DNA from: Escherichia coli
GTDB taxonomy: Bacteria; Pseudomonadota; Gammaproteobacteria; Enterobacterales; Enterobacteriaceae
Assembly: GCF_003991155.1 (NCBI RefSeq)
Contig: NZ_CP031293.1
Strand: one strand, 5' to 3'
Length of the DNA stretch: 64,000 bases
The number at the start of each line of letters is the position of its first letter. Position 1 is the stretch's first letter. Below, piece after piece: positions 48,524-58,848 of the stretch. The notes under the pieces were generated by a model. That model was given only the letters and a program-made list of their open reading frames with translations. It was not told the DNA's origin and did no database searches. The position numbers were made by a program, and so were the translations under genes.

Positions 48524-48719
48524 GCTTCACCTCCGCAGAGGTCAAACGCTGGATGCAAAAAATCGCAGGTGCATCTCTGCATCTGTGAAGGGAGAAGAGA
48601 GTTTGGATTGTATGTGCGCATAAACGTCCCCGTTTAGCGCAGAAGTCACCGGAGTTGTTCAGGCTCCGATGACATGATTATGGCAAAATGATTATGTAAA
48701 ATCAAAAGCCAAAAAACAA

Positions 48720-52465: not shown

Positions 52466-52768
52466 TCATTGTGTACCCATTGATGTTCTTTTATATACCC
52501 TCAATAAGCGTTTCATCGCGGCACTCTGGCGACACTCCTTAAAAATCAGATTCGTGCTCACCTTTCCTTCCCGTTCTTCTCTGGTAGCGAACCGGTAATA
52601 CACCGTTCGCCAGACCTTACCATCAACGACCAGGATTCCTGCCCGCGCCATTTTAGCCGCAGCCTGATTTATGCTGGTTACGGTTGCGCCTGTTACCGCG
52701 GCAACGTCCTGTGCACAGAAGCTCTTATGCGTCCCCAGGTAATGAATAATTGCCTCTTTGCCCGTCAT
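52466..52768 (-). CDS. ren: Ren protein
   Basis: 100-aa ORF MTGKEAIIHYLGTHKSFCAQDVAAVTGATVTSINQAAAKMARAG... Confidence 0.85.
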   Translation of the reverse strand: MTGKEAIIHYLGTHKSFCAQDVAAVTGATVTSINQAAAKMARAGILVVDGKVWRTVYYRFATREEREGKVSTNLIFKECRQSAAMKRLLRVYKRTSMGTQ

Positions 52769-53466
52769 ACACTTGCTCCTTTCAGTCCGAACTTAGCTTT
52801 AATTTCTGCGATCTTCGCCAGAGCCTGTGCACGATTTAGAGGTCTACCGCCCATAACAGGAAGTTGTTTTACTGGTTCAGGGATCGCCTCACCACGGTTA
52901 ATTCGCGCGGTCATACAAGTCAGTTCATCGGCAGCCTTGCGCCGTAATTCCGTATCAGTAAGCGCATTGGCCCGCATATTCTGGTACAGGCTAGTAACCA
53001 GCCAGTAGTGCGCGTTTGATTTCCACGGATAAGACTCTGCATCCGGATACAGGCCACGCTTCCGGCAATACTCGTAAACCATATCAACCAGCTCGCTGGC
53101 GTTTGGCAGTCCGGCAATAACGGATACTTCTTCACGGCACCATGCAACAAACTGCCCGGGTGATGGCAGGAATGGTCGATTCTGCCGACGGGCTACGCGC
53201 ATTCCTGCGTTAACCTGTTCCATTGTGGTGATCCCGTTTTCCCGGAAAGCCAGAACCCACTGGCGGCGGATTTCGTTCAGTTCGTTCTGGTCCCGGTTAG
53301 CCAGGCTCGCCGGGAAAGTTGCCAGTAACTGGCTGAACACACCATTGATGATCTGCGCTACCTGCTGTACCTGAGGCTTTTCGTCGTACTGTTCCGGCAT
53401 GTTGTTGGCGATCCGACGCATCTGCTCACGGTCAAAGTTAATCATCTGTGCGGCGATGTTTTTCAT
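52765..53466 (-). CDS. P: Replication protein P (helicase loader), lambda type
   Basis: 233-aa ORF MKNIAAQMINFDREQMRRIANNMPEQYDEKPQ... Confidence 0.9.
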   Translation of the reverse strand: MKNIAAQMINFDREQMRRIANNMPEQYDEKPQVQQVAQIINGVFSQLLATFPASLANRDQNELNEIRRQWVLAFRENGITTMEQVNAGMRVARRQNRPFLPSPGQFVAWCREEVSVIAGLPNASELVDMVYEYCRKRGLYPDAESYPWKSNAHYWLVTSLYQNMRANALTDTELRRKAADELTCMTARINRGEAIPEPVKQLPVMGGRPLNRAQALAKIAEIKAKFGLKGASV

Positions 53467-54392
53467 AAATCCACCCCGTAAATCCAGTCTGTGTTTGTCA
53501 GGTCGAGTTTTGGTTTGCTAGCTGTCACGCCTGCCTGTTGCTTGTTACGGTTGATTTCGAGTTGGGTCCACTTGTCGCGGAGTTTGGCCGGACTTAGCAC
53601 GTTACCGGACCAGAAGTTGTCCTGGCATGCCCAGCGGAACAGCACGCACATGTCGCGGTGGTTACGTCCGTCACGTTCACGCATCAGGCGGATATCGTTA
53701 GCCCACCCTGCAAAATTCGGTTTTCTGGCTGATGGCGCGATGGTCTTCACCATGTCAAACATCCACTCTGCGGCGGTCAGGTCTTCTGCTGTCCCCCACC
53801 TGCTGCCGCTCTGAATTGCAGCATCTGGTTTCTCCACAGGAAGGTCGTTTTCTGGCTGGTCAGAGGATTCGCCAGAATTCTCGGACGAAAAAGGTTTTAT
53901 ATTGTCTTTTGTTAGTTTGTCTTTTGTGTTTACCTGATTCGGGTAAACGTCTTTACCTGATTTGGGTAAACTTTTTTTACCTGATTCAGGTAAATTTACC
54001 TCTTTCAGGTAAACTTTATTTTTCTTACCTGATTCGGGTAATGTTGACCATTCACTGACCACATTATTAATGCCGATATTCCGCCCGCTCTGAATAAAAA
54101 TCCCACGCTTTACCAGAACACTTTTTGCAGCAGAACACTTGTGCGGCAATATCCCGGTTAACTCGGAAAGTTGCTCGTTGCTCACCCAATCCATTTTTTT
54201 ATTAAAGCCATATGTTTTGCGCATGACAGCCAGGAAGACCAGAAGCTGGTGCTGTGTTAATCCGGCCAGCATCACAGCTTCCAGCAACTCATTTGCAATG
54301 CGCGTATAACCATCATCGAGATCTGCCACGCGCCGCTCCTTTTGTGCCGCATCCGGCACTGGAAAATTGAATATCTCAGCAGTGTTTGCCAT
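53463..54392 (-). CDS. O: Replication initiator O-like, non-lambda specificity
   Basis: Start MANTAEIFNFPVPDAAQKERRVADLDDGY...; iteron array inside gene; C-terminus lambda-O-like. Confidence 0.8.
   Translation of the reverse strand: MANTAEIFNFPVPDAAQKERRVADLDDGYTRIANELLEAVMLAGLTQHQLLVFLAVMRKTYGFNKKMDWVSNEQLSELTGILPHKCSAAKSVLVKRGIFIQSGRNIGINNVVSEWSTLPESGKKNKVYLKEVNLPESGKKSLPKSGKDVYPNQVNTKDKLTKDNIKPFSSENSGESSDQPENDLPVEKPDAAIQSGSRWGTAEDLTAAEWMFDMVKTIAPSARKPNFAGWANDIRLMRERDGRNHRDMCVLFRWACQDNFWSGNVLSPAKLRDKWTQLEINRNKQQAGVTASKPKLDLTNTDWIYGVDL
53929..54044. repeat. Replication origin iterons inside O
   Basis: Four to five ~20-bp repeats TTACCTGATTCGGGTAAAC (variants TTTGGG, TCAGG) at roughly 24-bp spacing. 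Confidence 0.75.
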
Positions 54393-54478
54393 AATTCCTC
54401 CCGCAATGAGTGTGTTACGATTTGCACCTGAAAGTCGGTTCTGTTCCAGCAGACCGGCTTTCGCCATTTCTGAACCTG

Positions 54479-55018
54479 TCATATTGCCCCCAGCATGGTG
54501 GTGACCATCGCCATCAGTGGACCAGCCAGATCTGGGTCCACACGAAACATCGACACAATACCTTCACTAATTTCCTTCAGTTTCTGGTGGCGTGGTGCGT
54601 TGAGAATGACAGCCTGTTTTGCCTCACTGAGTTCCTTTTCCATTTCAGCCAACCTAGCCATAAAGCTATCCTGCTCAACCAGGTAACCGCGATATTCCAG
54701 CGGTAGTACCGCCAGAATTGCCGGGGTCAGTTCACGCACGTTATTTCGGTATTTTTCAGAATCGAATTTGTTATCGAGGAAGCGGAACAGCTTCTGGCGT
54801 GCACGGCTGACATCATCAGGGAAATCGATGGTGCCGCCGCCCAGCTCCCGATACTCATTCACAATGAGTGCGGCAACAACATCCTGATTATCTGCAGCCG
54901 ACCAGGCGCGAACGGCATCACGGATTTTTTCGTGGCCTGGCGCCTGTTTTGTTTGAGAACGATTTATCACCGCAGTCGGGGTAAATCCGCTAGTCTGTTG
55001 GTATGTAATTGGTTGCAT
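54479..55018 (-). CDS. YdaT-like protein in the cII position
   Basis: 179-aa ORF; EYRELGGGTIDFP and LTPAILAVLPLEYRGYL resemble Rac YdaT. Confidence 0.55.
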   Translation of the reverse strand: MQPITYQQTSGFTPTAVINRSQTKQAPGHEKIRDAVRAWSAADNQDVVAALIVNEYRELGGGTIDFPDDVSRARQKLFRFLDNKFDSEKYRNNVRELTPAILAVLPLEYRGYLVEQDSFMARLAEMEKELSEAKQAVILNAPRHQKLKEISEGIVSMFRVDPDLAGPLMAMVTTMLGAI

Positions 55019-55099
55019 AATTGATTCCTTTAGTTTGAATTGACTGTTAATCAGTCTGTTAAGTTGATTGCTTATTGTTAAAGAGCGTGAAATGGAAAT

Positions 55100-55330
55100 T
55101 TAAGCTGCGTTCTTTTCGGTGTGTGGAAACAACTTCGGAAGATCCGGGCGAATCTGGTATGCCTTCACAACTCCACCAGTAGCCGTAACAATGCTGCCGA
55201 CATGTTCAGGGGATACCTTTGCTTTGTTGTGAAGCCACTTATAGACGGCCTGCTGTGAAACTTCGCAGGCATCGCCCAGTTTCTTTTGTGAACCAACTAT
55301 ATTGATCGCTGTTTTGATTGCTGGGTTCAT
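55100..55330 (-). CDS. Cro-like HTH regulator (YdaS family)
   Basis: 76-aa ORF MNPAIKTAINIVGSQKKLGDACEVSQQAVYKWLHNK...; divergent from the repressor. Confidence 0.7.
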   Translation of the reverse strand: MNPAIKTAINIVGSQKKLGDACEVSQQAVYKWLHNKAKVSPEHVGSIVTATGGVVKAYQIRPDLPKLFPHTEKNAA

Positions 55331-55434
55331 AACAACCTCCGTGGTTAATCTGAACCAAGATTAAAACTATGGTTGTTTTTAGTCAACAACCATTTTCGTT
55401 TGATGGAATAAAACCTTGGTTGTACATTTGGTCT
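55331..55434. promoter_or_regulatory. OR-like operator/promoter region between cro and cI
   Basis: Inverted repeats TTAATCTGAACCAAGATTAA (55345-55364) and ATGGTTGTT-N7-AACAACCAT (55369-55393). Confidence 0.6.
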
Positions 55435-56124
55435 ATGAAAACAACACTCTCAGAAAGACTTAAAGAAGCCAGATCAGCGCGAGGCCTTACACAAAAGGCA
55501 CTTGGGGATTTGGTTGGGGTTAGCCAGGCTGCTATTCAGAAAATCGAAACAGGGAAAGCTAACCAAACAACTAAAATCGTGGAGATCGCGAACGCTTTGG
55601 GTGTGCGCGCAGAATGGTTATCTTCTGGCATTGGAAATATGTCAGACAGTACAGTGCAACCAATACAATCAACTCTCAGCCATTCCAAATACTTCAAGAT
55701 TGACGTTCTTGATATAGAAGTCAGTGCTGGGCCGGGAGTCATCAACCGTGAGTTTGTAGAAGTTCTACGCTCGGTTGAGTACTCGTTTGACGATGCTCGT
55801 CACATGTTCGATGGTAGGAAAGCGGAAAATATCCGCATCATTAACGTGCGTGGTGACAGCATGTCAGGAACGATCGAACCAGGTGATCTGCTGTTCGTTG
55901 ATATCACTGTTAAATCTTTCGACGGTGATGGTATCTATGCGTTTCTGTACGACGACACAGCCCATGTAAAGCGCCTGCAAATGATGAAGGATAAGCTGCT
56001 GGTCATCTCTGATAACAAAAGCTACTCACCGTGGGACCCGATCGAGAAAGACGAGATGAACCGGGTGTTCATCTTCGGTAAGGTTATTGGGAGCATGCCG
56101 CAGACGTACAGGAAACACGGATAA
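55435..56124 (+). CDS. cI: CI-like repressor with S24 LexA-type autopeptidase domain
   Basis: Start MKTTLSERLKEARSARGLTQKALGDLVGVSQAAIQKIE (HTH); C-terminal GDSM and KRL catalytic motifs. Confidence 0.85.
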   Translation: MKTTLSERLKEARSARGLTQKALGDLVGVSQAAIQKIETGKANQTTKIVEIANALGVRAEWLSSGIGNMSDSTVQPIQSTLSHSKYFKIDVLDIEVSAGPGVINREFVEVLRSVEYSFDDARHMFDGRKAENIRIINVRGDSMSGTIEPGDLLFVDITVKSFDGDGIYAFLYDDTAHVKRLQMMKDKLLVISDNKSYSPWDPIEKDEMNRVFIFGKVIGSMPQTYRKHG

Positions 56125-56204
56125 TCAGCTGCGTGCTGATGAGGCTTTAGGGTAATGCGCTGAAAGAATTCTTTATAAAAATAACATTACGGGAAAGGCA
56201 AAAA

Positions 56205-56474
56205 ATGAGTGATAAAAAACTTATTAAAAAATCAAATAACTGTGTAGATGCATATGCTGATGCATTTGGATATTCATCTTTTGGGGAAGATGACGATCGC
56301 TTAGGCTCCATATCTTTCTTTCAGCATGTTACAGAATGGGACGCTGATGGTAGTAATGACACTGAAAGCGTAAAGTACAACATTGCAACAATTCGCATGA
56401 CGGAAGATTTAATGCTTAAACTCGCTGACTTTATTCGCGATCAGCATGATAGAGCTAAAACCAATAAGTCATAA
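56205..56474 (+). CDS. Hypothetical acidic protein, first gene in the rexAB position
   Basis: 89-aa AT-rich ORF MSDKKLIKKSNNCVDAYADAFGYSSFGEDDD... Confidence 0.5.
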   Translation: MSDKKLIKKSNNCVDAYADAFGYSSFGEDDDRLGSISFFQHVTEWDADGSNDTESVKYNIATIRMTEDLMLKLADFIRDQHDRAKTNKS

Positions 56475-56482
56475 TATTAACA

Positions 56483-56923
56483 ATGAAATACGGTTATTAC
56501 GAAGCTCCAAACCTAACTGAAAAGCTTGAACAAGCGGCAAGATCATCATCTTTGCACACCGCAGCATTTTCTCAATCAGCTGGTATGTCTGGCGATAATG
56601 TACCTATGCTACAATCAAGTGGTAGCGGTGGCTCTGGGAGTAATAATGTGCTTGAATCAAAAGTTGCAAAGCTTGAGTCTGATGTGTCCTACATCCGACG
56701 TGACGTTGATGAGCTTAAGACAGATGTCAAATCTATCGACAGAAACATGATCGCTGTTCTGGAGCGACTCGATTCAATAAAAGAGTCACTAGCCAAAAAA
56801 CCATCCATCGATGCTATCGATAAAAAGATTTCAGACGCAAAGCTTGCGGTATTGCTTGGTGTTCCAGCAATCATCGCTGCAGGAACAGGGCTTTATAAGC
56901 TATCAATGTACTTTTTTCTTTAG
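56483..56923 (+). CDS. Hypothetical coiled-coil protein with C-terminal TM anchor, second gene in the rexAB position
   Basis: 146 aa; heptad-like VLESKVAKLESDVSYIRRDVDELKTDVKSIDRNM; hydrophobic tail LAVLLGVPAIIAAGTGLYKLSMYFFL. Confidence 0.55.
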   Translation: MKYGYYEAPNLTEKLEQAARSSSLHTAAFSQSAGMSGDNVPMLQSSGSGGSGSNNVLESKVAKLESDVSYIRRDVDELKTDVKSIDRNMIAVLERLDSIKESLAKKPSIDAIDKKISDAKLAVLLGVPAIIAAGTGLYKLSMYFFL

Positions 56924-57002
56924 TGCTTAAGAAACTGCTCGCCACCTCGCATTAGGCAAAGCGATTTTTCATTCCCTATTACCCTTTCTTAACCAATCAT
57001 CT

Positions 57003-57031
57003 AAACCCGGCCCCGTGCCGGGTTTTCTTTT
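57003..57031 (+). terminator. Rho-independent terminator ending the cI operon
   Basis: AAACCCGGC-CCCGT-GCCGGGTTT hairpin followed by TTCTTTTG. Confidence 0.75.
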
Positions 57032-57158
57032 GCCCTCCCCTCATCACACACACCGTTAAAAAAACCACCATAACCTCGCTTCAGTTATCGCTATGCGATT
57101 CAAGTCACAAAATAAATCCATCCTAAATACAACCAGTTATATCTAAAACAACCAATAA

Positions 57159-57202
57159 AACAACTTTTGTTGTTGACGATAAAACAACTATAGTTTTAAA
57201 TA
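57159..57202 (+). promoter_or_regulatory. Candidate OL/pL: operator palindrome plus promoter elements
   Basis: AACAAC-TTTT-GTTGTT palindrome overlapping a TTGACG -35; TAAATA 18 bp downstream; half-sites shared with OR. Confidence 0.4.
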
Positions 57203-57274
57203 AGTTCATCGCAACAACACAACGATACGGCAACCACCTGATTCACCGTTGCGATGACCGCTTAGATCCGCAGC

Positions 57275-57685
57275 TTGAATTTCAGCAGGCTCCGGGGAGT
57301 GCGAGGGGTGAAGCGGACGCGTGAACGTCGGTGTGACCAGCTGAAATCAACTCAACACTTCATACCTCAGTCGCTTCAACGAGGCGGCTTAGTTATGACA
57401 ACCGGCGGCCATCCACCGCCTGAATACGCGCAGAAGTCTCTATATGTTCAGCAGCCCAGCTTACGGGCAGGAGTTTTTATGGTTCATCAACATTACGGTA
57501 CGCAGACCGTTAATCGCGGTGCGGTCATGCCAGGAATGCTGGTCAAACACAAAGATGGTACCTGGACTGCATCGGCTAATTTACGCGGACGGCTTTATCT
57601 GCATCGCGGCGTCGAGCGCACTTATACCCGTGACTTGCTCGTGGAAATTTTTCTCGACGGACGCGGCAACGGCCTGAATCACTAA
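57275..57685 (+). CDS. Hypothetical early-left protein with Arg-rich motif, possible N-like antiterminator
   Basis: ORF with non-ATG start; N-terminal [12 protein letters not shown] resembles the lambda N Arg-rich motif; rest of protein unlike N. Confidence 0.35.
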
Positions 57686-57760
57686 TCCCCTTTCCTGTTT
57701 TCCTAATCAGCCTGGCATTTCGCGGGCGATATTTTCACAGCCATTTTCAGGAGTTCAGCC

Positions 57761-58057
57761 ATGAACGCTTATTACATTCAGGATCGTCTTGAGGCTCAGA
57801 GCTGGGCACGTCACTACCAGCAGATCGCCCGTGAAGAGAAAGAGGCAGAACTGGCAGACGACATGGAAAAAGGCCTGCCCCAGCACCTGTTTGAATCGCT
57901 ATGCATCGATCATTTGCAACGCCACGGGGCCAGCAAAAAAGCCATTACCCGTGCGTTTGATGACGATGTTGAGTTTCAGGAGCGCATGGCAGAACACATC
58001 CGGTACATGGTTGAAACCATTGCTCACCACCAGGTTGATATTGATTCAGAGGTATAA
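57761..58057 (+). CDS. gam: Gam, host RecBCD inhibitor (short form)
   Basis: 98-aa [41 protein letters not shown]... Confidence 0.9.
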
Positions 58058-58062
58058 AACGG

Positions 58063-58848
58063 ATGAGTACAGCACTCGCAACGCTGGCTGGGAAGCTGGC
58101 TGAACGTGTCGGCATGGATTCAGTCGACCCACAGGAACTGATCACCACTCTTCGCCAGACGGCATTTAAAGGTGATGCCAGCGATGCGCAGTTCATCGCA
58201 TTGTTGATCGTCGCCAACCAGTACGGCCTTAATCCGTGGACGAAAGAAATTTACGCCTTCCCTGATAAGCAGAACGGCATCGTTCCGGTGGTGGGCGTTG
58301 ATGGCTGGTCCCGCATCATCAATGAAAACCAGCAGTTTGATGGCATGGACTTTGAGCAGGACAACGAATCCTGTACATGCCGAATTTACCGCAAGGACCG
58401 TAATCATCCGATCTGCGTTACCGAGTGGATGGATGAATGCCGCCGCGAACCATTCAAAACCCGCGAAGGCAGAGAAATCACGGGGCCGTGGCAGTCGCAT
58501 CCCAAACGGATGTTACGGCATAAAGCCATGATTCAGTGTGCCCGTCTGGCCTTCGGATTTGCTGGTATCTATGACAAGGATGAAGCCGAGCGCATTGTCG
58601 AAAATACCGCATACACTGCAGAACATCAGCCGGAACGCGACATCACTCCGGTTAACGATGAAACCATGCAGGAGATTAACACTCTGCTGATCGCCCTGGA
58701 TAAAACATGGGATGACGACTTATTGCCGCTCTGTTCCCAGATATTTCGCCGCGACATTCGCGCATCGTCAGAACTGACACAGGCCGAAGCAGTGAAAGCT
58801 CTTGGATTCCTGAAACAGAAAGCCACTGAGCAGAAGGTGGCAGCATGA
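58063..58848 (+). CDS. bet: Bet single-strand annealing recombinase
   Basis: 261-aa [35 protein letters not shown]... Confidence 0.95.

Follow-up and report, generated by a model that had tools for sequence, protein, structure and literature searches.

A lambdoid immunity region with 434-like operators, a YdaS-family Cro and a YdaT/phi80-type CII in an Escherichia coli prophage

Genes, promoters and operators of the immunity region

We analyzed positions 54479-57685 of a 64-kb stretch of Escherichia coli DNA (the window; contig NZ_CP031293.1), which hold the immunity and early-control region of a lambdoid prophage beside tRNA-Arg. Gene families were assigned by Pfam, PHROG and NCBIfam. The region belongs, with a probability that we put at about 0.85, to an ordinary lysis-lysogeny switch: a 434-type repressor, a Cro protein, a phi80-type CII and matching operators at two promoters. 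The core genes, the promoters read from the sequence and the candidate operators, 14-bp 434-like sites of the form AMAAC-N4-GTTKT, are as follows.

54479-55018, minus strand: ydaT or phi80-type cII, 179 amino acids (aa); PF06254 (8e-30), PHROG 163 "CII-like transcriptional activator" (6e-67)
55100-55330, minus strand: cro, 76 aa, a YdaS-family helix-turn-helix (HTH) protein; Pfam YdaS_toxin (7e-17), with weaker matches to P22_Cro and HTH_3; PHROG 35 "transcriptional repressor"
55358-55386, minus strand: predicted pR; -35 TTGACT (55386-55381), 17-nt spacer, -10 TAATCT (55363-55358), predicted +1 at about A55351
55363-55376: OR1, AAAACTATGGTTGT, within the pR spacer; strict pattern match
55386-55399: OR2, ACAACCATTTTCGT, abutting the -35 of pR and the -35 of pRM; weak right half, 8/10 pattern match
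55400-55428, plus strand: predicted pRM; -35 TTGATG, 17-nt spacer, -10 TACATT
55410-55423: OR3, AAAACCTTGGTTGT, within the pRM spacer; strict pattern match
55435-56124, plus strand: cI, 229 aa, with a 434-like HTH domain and an S24 autopeptidase domain; Pfam HTH_3 and Peptidase_S24
57129-57142 and 57148-57161: two OL3 candidates, ACAACCAGTTATAT and ACAACCAATAAAAC; in each, only the left half-site is good
57160-57173: OL2, ACAACTTTTGTTGT, perfect half-sites, overlapping the pL -35 by 1 bp; strict pattern match
57173-57201, plus strand: predicted pL; -35 TTGACG, 17-nt spacer, -10 TTAAAT, predicted +1 at A57208
57184-57197: OL1, ACAACTATAGTTTT, between the -35 and -10 of pL; strict pattern match

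The divergent cI (55435, plus strand) and cro (55330, minus strand) genes are separated by three 14-bp sites that overlap predicted pR and pRM. A second set lies at pL, where OL1 and OL2 match the pattern strictly and are conserved in two other genera. Across the 64 kb of the window the strict pattern has four matches (at 55363, 55410, 57160 and 57184), each one of them in OR or OL; block shuffles lead one to expect 0.23 (local shuffle p <=0.0004). An earlier reading made from the letters of this DNA (the sequence-only reading) had proposed such a half-site search. It had described inverted repeats in OR and OL as consistent with recognition by one repressor. The features that it described all exist, with small coordinate corrections; ACAAC/GTTGT-type half-sites are present in both OR and OL and, being common to the two, point to a single repressor specificity. 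What did not survive was the long palindromic form: the sites are 14 bp long and 23-24 bp apart (OR2 is 23 bp from OR1 and 24 bp from OR3), and they hold identical positions relative to pR and pL. A perfect 9-bp inverted repeat in OR (55369-55377/55385-55393) is present as well; it is no operator in itself, being made up of the pR -35 hexamer together with the right half-site of OR1 and the left half-site of OR2. Operators in the form of 17-bp AAAAC-N7-GTTTT sites or long palindromes were also considered. We rejected them for the 14-bp register because only that register is kept in relatives from Klebsiella and Providencia and matches a 434-like domain.

These relatives, Klebsiella phage ST101-KPC2phi6.1 and Providencia phage PSTCR7lys, have the CI helix (VSQAAIQKIETG) and the Cro recognition region (QQAVYKWLHNKAKVS) found here together with the same operators. 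All half-sites are kept in them; the central four bases and the spacers between operators vary. OR1 reads AAAACCTTAGTTGT in both relatives, and OR2 is nearly invariant across the three genera (TCAACAAC[C/T]AT[T/A]TTCGTTTG). The OR3 half-sites are conserved around a variable central 4 bp; the OL2 half-sites are invariant in the two relatives and the E. coli variants, again around a varying center. OL1 agrees with the pR-strand sequence of OR1 (ACAACCATAGTTTT) at 13 of 14 positions, and is conserved in both relatives. Among about 45 E. coli OL variants the half-sites are invariant and the spacers vary. The choice of OL3 between the two candidates is uncertain; an ACAACCA motif is kept in the relatives, either 31 bp or about 41 bp from OL2.

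The operator consensus of phage 434 is ACAA-N6-TTGT. OL2 fits it in both halves, OL1, OR1 and OR3 are each one base off, and OR2 is two off. Phage 4A7 combines the cI C-terminal domain, YdaT and pL leader found here with other recognition helices in cI and cro and with operators based on AATAGCAAT. Operators and recognition helices thus vary together, and from the sequence comparison we read 4A7 as a natural specificity swap.

The N-terminal domain of CI belongs with 434. A phmmer search of the PDB returned 1sq8 (7e-9), which is a designed variant of 434, and 1per (2e-8), the 434 repressor itself, with matches covering residues 5-71, so that the best solved relatives are the 434 repressor DNA-binding domain and its designed variant. 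The C-terminal S24 domain (PF00717, 1e-18) has the residues of autocleavage: Ala98-Gly99, Ser142 in GDSM, and Lys179. The sequence-only reading had named the S24 domain and expected an SOS-inducible repressor. The domain, with its cleavage-site and catalytic residues, is confirmed, and RecA-stimulated self-cleavage leading to SOS induction is plausible on these residues. In RefSeq, as annotated by the Prokaryotic Genome Annotation Pipeline (PGAP), and in some phage records cI begins at 55369 and is a 251-aa "S24 family peptidase"; that start would put operators inside the coding sequence. In the Klebsiella relative an in-frame TAA closes this upstream extension. We consider the 55369 start unlikely; conservation and the in-frame stop in the relative argue for the ATG at 55435.

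The predicted pR and pL match at 30 of 36 positions over GTTGTTGAC..ACAAC.ATAGTTTTAA. The predicted +1 of pL is also the point from which the sequence resembles that of 4A7, a phage confirmed to be heteroimmune. The cI AUG is the seventh nucleotide after the pRM -10 and no Shine-Dalgarno sequence precedes the ATG at 55435; for these reasons we predict that cI is translated from a leaderless pRM transcript. A TAnnTT hexamer stands 6-7 nt before the cI ATG in all three genera. The center of OR2 lies at about -42.5 from the cI start, and lambda CI activates pRM from a position about 42 bp upstream. A leaderless cI arrangement has been shown for paaR2 of CP-933P and for lambda cI (PMC8630535).

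We then considered the two genes on the other side of OR. YdaT is encoded directly after cro on the pR transcript, as judged from gene order, and its stop codon overlaps the start of the O gene. It shares 65.6% identity with the product annotated as cII in phi80 and 51-73% with homologues of HK225, HK639, mEp237, CobraSix and KO-TP1. Against CP-933P YdaT (PDB 8bt1) the match is distant (E 6e-5), with the QK(L/I)FR(F/W)LD helix aligned. The sequence-only reading was right about both family matches, including the 179-aa YdaT-family protein, and about that protein's occupying the position of lambda cII. In CP-933P, footprints of YdaS and of PaaR2 lie on the operators between the genes, and a pRE-like promoter is under the control of YdaT (PMC8630535); CP-933P YdaT is a tetrameric HTH protein that recognizes TTGATT-N6-AATCAA (PMC9986795). 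Rac YdaT binds ATGATT-N6-AATCAA and activates racR (PMC11879457). Gene position and these published experiments on CP-933P and Rac lead us to conclude that "YdaS" is Cro and that "YdaT" is the CII equivalent, not a toxin.

The alternative is that YdaS and YdaT form a toxin-antitoxin or toxic module and are not regulators of lysis and lysogeny. The Pfam names YdaS_toxin and YdaT_toxin suggest as much, and overexpressed Rac YdaT leads to filamentation and cell death, a toxicity that arises from misregulated transcription, through rcsA (PMC11879457). We give this alternative hardly any weight. The two genes stand in the cro and cII positions, between pR/OR and the replication genes O and P; the YdaS and YdaT proteins of CP-933P and Rac bind operator or promoter DNA and regulate the cI-like gene; and the protein is, as given above, 65.6% identical to the annotated phi80 cII product. 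The toxin reading has itself been challenged on genetic-context grounds (PMC5917428). The remark in the sequence-only reading that such pairs are toxic or affect division is outdated (PMC8630535, PMC9986795, PMC11879457 and PMC5917428).

Several points weigh against the switch as we describe it. The operator pattern was defined on the same sites that were later counted, and its independent support consequently lies in the cross-genus conservation and in the half-site invariance among E. coli variants. OR2 and OL3 are weak or ambiguous matches to the pattern. A literature search for these operator sequences found no paper containing them. Near the cro-ydaT junction we found no canonical YdaT box TTGATT-N6-AATCAA, the best match being 9/12 at 55064, so that the cI-establishment promoter controlled by the CII equivalent was not located. 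No canonical box was found in the cro-cII region of phi80 either. Direct repeats AATCAA-N6-AACCAA overlap the ydaT ATG; 4A7 does not conserve them.

An exact Rac-type YdaT box does occur elsewhere in the prophage. ATGATT-N6-AATCAA lies at 48688-48705 in the nin region, within a minus-strand promoter (48677-48705) that heads orf33-ybcN-ninE-ybcO-rusA-ylcG-Q; the box overlaps the -35 (TTGATT) and the spacer. The phage 82 record X92588 lists this promoter as putative. As [A/T]TGAT[T/A]-N6-AATCAA with a variable spacer, the box is kept in phage 82, KO-TP1, HK639 and CobraSix, and similarity among these phages stops exactly there. All 21 complete phage records that carry the element (21/21) also have a YdaT/phi80-type cII, which is found in only 52 of 50,697 records. 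This co-occurrence suggests that the CII equivalent may control transcription of the Q operon. Lambda CII, for its part, acts on expression of the late-gene activator through paQ.

Taken together, these features suggest how the switch would operate. CI dimers would bind the 14-bp operators, with OR1 and OR2 covering pR and OL1 and OL2 covering pL. CI bound at OR2 could activate pRM, and OR3, in the pRM spacer, could shut off cI at high levels of CI or Cro. RecA-stimulated cleavage at Ala98-Gly99, with Ser142 and Lys179, would induce the prophage. Cro would be made first from pR, and the phi80-type CII that comes next would serve as the establishment regulator, the counterpart of lambda CII.

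The pL leader and its inverted repeat

Downstream of pL lies a conserved leader that starts with an inverted repeat; an element on the pR side has to be considered with it.

57206-57215/57248-57257, plus strand: 10-bp inverted repeat, TCATCGCAAC/GTTGCGATGA, with a 32-nt loop
57208-57478, plus strand: untranslated pL leader module, 271 nt, in the place of an N gene
55042-55087, minus strand: cro-ydaT intergenic element in a nutR-like position; exact rrn-type boxA CGCTCTTTAACAA (55087-55075), then a hairpin GACUG-AUUAA-CAGUC (55056-55042)

A repeat just past pL had been part of the sequence-only reading, as 9 bp at about 57208-57264. The repeat is there; its size and coordinates are corrected to 10 bp and 57206-57257. 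The predicted +1 (A57208) places the 5' arm at the 5' end of the transcript, where the stem, counted from +1, has 8 bp. The leader that follows is 97-100% identical in 85 of 90 loci compared. It is joined to four promoter/operator contexts, types A-D (4A7 is type B), with no further type in 196 loci. In all four types the predicted first nucleotides pair with an invariant 3' arm (CCGUUGCGAUG): AUCGCAAC in type A, GUCGCAAC in type B, AUUGCA in type C and AUC-CAACGG in type D. Relative to the predicted +1, the stem begins within about 0-2 nt of the 5' end in each of the four promoter contexts. Between types, an A-U pair becomes G-U, two C-G pairs become U-G, and type D gains a GG/CC extension: its AA-to-GG change carries the helix on into the CC just before the 3' arm. 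In type C the pairing sits inside an unrelated loop, and in type D the intervening sequence is rearranged. The arms are essentially invariant, and the loop has about 8 polymorphic sites.

We tentatively propose, at somewhat under even odds, that the repeat forms a 5'-terminal stem-loop that stabilizes the pL message. 5'-terminal stem-loops reportedly stabilize E. coli mRNAs (work of Emory, Bouvet and Belasco from 1992). The pL transcript would open at about A57208 with the stem-loop, followed by a 270-nt untranslated leader and then kil-gam-bet-exo, and the stem-loop would most likely protect it from 5'-end-dependent decay. A number of results weigh against this proposal, and most of them favor a rather unlikely yet serious alternative in which the repeat has no structural function. 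On that account the 5' arm simply represents the conserved stretch that is transcribed first from pL (CATCGCAAC; phi80 has the related CATCGAAAC), the 3' arm is conserved for another reason, and the complementarity is incidental. Taken by itself, the repeat is nothing out of the ordinary: perfect inverted repeats with arms of at least 9 bp and loops of 3-40 nt number 41 in the window and about 11 in shuffles. The RNA folding proposed for it was run and was unremarkable (-9.4 to -13 kcal/mol); z-scores of -0.05 to -2 indicate ordinary stability, and they are near zero for RNA from +1. The interest of the repeat therefore comes from its position and from comparison, not from statistics. Types A and B contain no double compensatory substitution within them. 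A search for covariation within the leader gave only one-sided, wobble-compatible changes, as expected where sequences are 97-100% identical; every change in the arms is a transition opposite G or U, so that base pairing is kept in any case. The 18 nt that follow the 3' arm (57256-57273) are equally invariant, which means that the conservation is not particular to paired bases. "CATC" at +1 is widespread in lambdoid pL promoters and is shared by the pL starts of phi80, KO-TP1 and the Klebsiella and Providencia phages. An incidental repeat does not readily account for types C and D, in which the 5' end still pairs with the 3' arm across unrelated or rearranged intervening sequence, or for the type D change that lengthens the helix.

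The sequence-only reading had offered an operator or a nut-like RNA element instead. We find both wanting: the repeat is common to 4A7 and types C and D, which have other operators, and it comes without an operator motif, an N gene, a leader boxA or a match to Rfam or put. A DNA site for a protein, whether an extra CI/Cro operator or the site of another regulator, would suit an inverted repeat that adjoins a regulated promoter and has AACAAC and ACAAC strings in its 5' arm region. Yet no 14-mer in the repeat exceeds 7/10 when compared with the operator pattern, a gap of 32 bp between the arms does not suit a dimeric HTH site, and the repeat is unchanged in 4A7, with its other CI/Cro recognition helices, and in types C and D, with their other operator sets. 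Since the leader module is shared across different operator sets, the repeat is not an operator of this repressor, and we regard a DNA site of any sort as highly improbable. That the repeat or the leader is a cis-acting antitermination RNA, nut-like (N-dependent) or put-like (HK022 type), which compensates for a missing N, also seems improbable to us, less so than a DNA site. PGAP annotates no N gene between pL and kil and none is detectable there; the leader is highly conserved and non-coding; put-type RNAs have been suggested for N-less lambdoid phages (PMC12315714); the pR side has an exact boxA in the nutR position; and two short collinear motifs recur in the pL leader and the cro-ydaT spacer, with 1 of 300 shuffles doing as well for the 15-mer. 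Against it, the pL leader contains no boxA and as a whole is not unusually structured (z -0.7). A search of 54000-58200 against Rfam returned no family. A covariance model of HK022 putL/putR had no match in 54000-58000; built from two sequences, it has limited sensitivity, and it recovers both HK022 sites with E values of 1e-26 to 1e-29. Finally, 4A7-type phages combine the same leader with a 30-nt cro-ydaT spacer that has neither boxA nor shared motif, which means that there is no conserved left/right pair of sites. The 5'-terminal stem-loop thus stays our preferred, if tentative, account of the repeat.

No conserved open reading frame (ORF) runs through the leader, and some variants have an in-frame stop at 57368. 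We rejected an N-like protein encoded by an Arg-rich frame (KRTRERR, possible GTG at 57308) fused to kil: distant Kil homologues have 68 aa, the extension is present only in near-identical sequences, the frame is not conserved and is stopped at 57368 in some variants, and there is no nutL. Also rejected was an origin of the leader as a decayed copy of the cro 3' end and spacer; when the alignment is extended upstream, its score is reached by 232 of 1000 shuffles and so lacks significance.

On the pR side, the boxA is the sole 12/12 match to GCTCTTTAACAA in the window, where simple arithmetic predicts about 0.008. The 5-bp hairpin that follows it was seen in the fold. A boxA with a hairpin is found on the pR side only, not a boxA and boxB on both transcripts. 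The Providencia relative has boxA on both arms; the Klebsiella relative and 4A7 have none. The pR-side boxA is either a relic of an N-dependent ancestor or an N-independent site for Nus factors.

The collinear motifs lie at 57269-57283 and 57343-57357 in the leader, and at 55109-55095 and 55071-55057 (minus strand) in the cro-ydaT spacer. They read CGCAGCTT[G/A]AATTTC and G[A/C]AATCAACT[C/T]AACA. The first overlaps the cro stop codon, and its copy in the leader reads Ala-Ala-stop in one frame.

Flanking genes and distribution

The remaining features surround the switch.

52765-53466, minus strand: P gene
53463-54482, minus strand: O gene, with iterons inside the gene
56205-56923, plus strand: two cargo genes, of 89 and 146 aa, that occupy the rexAB position; PHROG 4231 and 3556, function unknown
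57003-57025, plus strand: intrinsic terminator at the end of the cI-cargo operon; 9-bp stem with 6 GC pairs, then a T-run
57361-57420, plus strand: two-hairpin RNA element that buries the Shine-Dalgarno sequence and AUG (57395) of a small ORF just upstream of kil
57479-57685, plus strand: kil, 68 aa, a KilR-type FtsZ inhibitor (PHROG 294, 1e-37; NCBIfam PRK11354); opens the pL operon, ahead of gam, bet and exo

The two cargo genes are probably co-transcribed with cI: all three would be read from the leaderless pRM transcript, which would end at the 57003-57025 terminator. That terminator is kept in 4A7 behind different cargo. PADLOC gave no credible defense-system match for the two cargo genes. 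By its translation, the second cargo protein is coiled-coil-like in its middle part and hydrophobic at the C-terminus. In relatives of the same or a related immunity, HipA/HipD, GevT/GevA or an ASCH-domain gene occupies this slot, and the interval between cI and N is a known hotspot of mosaic diversity (PMC8585504).

The joints between this immunity type and the 4A7 type fall at 55018/55019 (the ydaT start codon), at about 55700 (inside cI, between the DNA-binding and C-terminal domains) and at 57207/57208 (the +1 of pL). All three are functional boundaries. The terminator and about 100 bp before OL (57003-57125) are common to both types.

For kil we used the PGAP start; its polymorphisms fall mainly at third codon positions. 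The element upstream of it adopts the same two-hairpin fold in the window, HK225, phi80, KO-TP1 and ENT1, which are phages of E. coli, Klebsiella and Enterobacter. In the relatives, under our locus numbers, it lies at about 2503-2567 of L008, 3003-3062 of L007, 1503-1568 of L091 and 1501-1569 of L092. At its base the long hairpin pairs CAUA with the UAUG of the small-ORF start codon, and its 3' strand contains the GAGG Shine-Dalgarno sequence; the second hairpin is GGCGG-CCAUCCA-CCGCC. The inner stem shows compensatory changes (AGUCGC/GCGGCU, AGCAAC/GUUGCU, AAACGGG/CCUGUUU and GAGUCA/UGGCUC). In phi80 and HK225 the small ORF encodes 20 aa; in this prophage it forms an in-frame fusion with kil. 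In relatives with N or another upstream gene, the element comes after an intrinsic terminator. It may be a translational control element for the toxic kil, possibly one sensitive to polyproline stalling.

Between kil and gam, at 57710-57727, we also observed a terminator-like hairpin (GCCTGGCATTTCGCGGGC) with a T-rich tail; this segment is 98.6% identical to many Stx and lambda-like phages.

One could imagine that the N-less lambdoid group (this prophage, the PhiR series and 4A7/Bievrevirus) runs its early program without N/nut or put, a speculation that we consider unlikely as a whole. It would combine the 5' stem-loop of pL, the kil-leader hairpin masking a small PPP-containing ORF, the YdaT box of the 48677-48705 promoter gating the late activator directly, and an rrn-type boxA that alone recruits Nus factors on the pR side.

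The prophage is flanked by fim genes and a DLP12-like nin-Q-lysis region. PGAP annotates P, O, ren, nin genes, Q, gam, bet, exo and an int by tRNA-Arg, and in strain 2016C-3878 the prophage adjoins tRNA-Arg and carries DLP12-like nin genes, Q, a lysis cassette and int. Inside O, tandem copies of about 20 bp resembling TTTACCTGATTCGGGTAAAC occur at 53925-54045, consistent with the iteron-type replication origin expected of a lambda-like O/P replicon. For 3.35 kb that include the switch, identity is 100% in at least 20 of the complete E. coli genomes listed, and 196 complete E. coli genomes contain 80% or more of this segment. The free phages PhiR34_1, PhiR5_1, IdasGreatGrand, PhiR47_2 and PhiR26_1 have the immunity region at 96-97% identity and differ only in the cargo between cI and pL. 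A literature search for the PhiR phages found nothing relevant.

The gain is a precise map of operators and promoters for an immunity type of about 200 complete E. coli genomes and several isolated phages. Two recurring annotation problems are corrected: the cI start is 55435 and not 55369, and the "toxin YdaT" is a CII equivalent. If the side observations are true, the timing of early and late transcription in N-less lambdoid phages and the actual binding targets of phi80-type CII proteins would become directly testable.

Comparison with known systems

The region is closest to 434 in its type of repressor and operator, to phi80 in its type of CII and its kil-upstream element, and to CP-933P in experimentally studied architecture. 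Like 434, it has a 434-like HTH domain, 14-bp operators of the ACAA-N6-TTGT type, three OR sites between divergent pR and pRM, and an S24 C-terminal domain. Unlike 434, its recognition helix is SQAAIQK (TQQSIEQ in 434), so that it does not have the specificity of 434; the fifth base of the half-site is fixed (ACAAC/GTTGT), with AAAAC accepted; its Cro belongs to the YdaS family and its cII to the YdaT type, and it lacks an N gene.

With phi80, and also with HK225 and mEp237, the region shares the 179-aa YdaT-family type of CII, the hairpin/small-ORF element upstream of kil, and the order cI, cargo, pL, kil. The operators and cI of phi80 are different. Its pL leader is long and includes a boxA-like TGCTTTTTAACAA, and an annotated N gene and a terminator precede its kil element. 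In the prophage described here, all of this gives way to about 150 nt of unrelated leader.

CP-933P of O157:H7 and Rac likewise have a leaderless cI-like gene and divergent genes for YdaS (Cro) and YdaT (the CII equivalent), and in CP-933P the pL hexamers are the same as those of pR and there are OL1-3 (PMC8630535). The differences are that PaaR2 and RacR lack an S24 domain, that the operator consensus is GTTTAGTAA, that YdaT is only distantly related to the one described here, and that a TTGATT-N6-AATCAA box lies at the ydaS/ydaT junction there and not here.

Lambda shares the tripartite OR, OL, pR, pL and pRM, with OR2 at about -42 from pRM, and a leaderless cI. As here, its rexAB slot contains cargo with a terminator behind it, the Red genes lie downstream of pL, and there are O and P genes with iterons in O. 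Its operators are 17 bp, its repressor belongs to a different fold family, its CII is unrelated in sequence, and it uses N/nutL/nutR antitermination, whereas only a boxA occupies the nutR position here. HK022 is, like this prophage, an N-independent lambdoid phage with a conserved non-coding RNA directly downstream of pL; the put sites show no similarity in sequence or structure to the leader, and no matching element lies downstream of pR here.

The region is thus not imm434, not an N/nut system and not a put system. It belongs to the lambdoid CI/Cro class and to the YdaT/phi80-CII class, as one further immunity specificity in a textbook class: the specificity appears to be undescribed, and its kind is thoroughly known.

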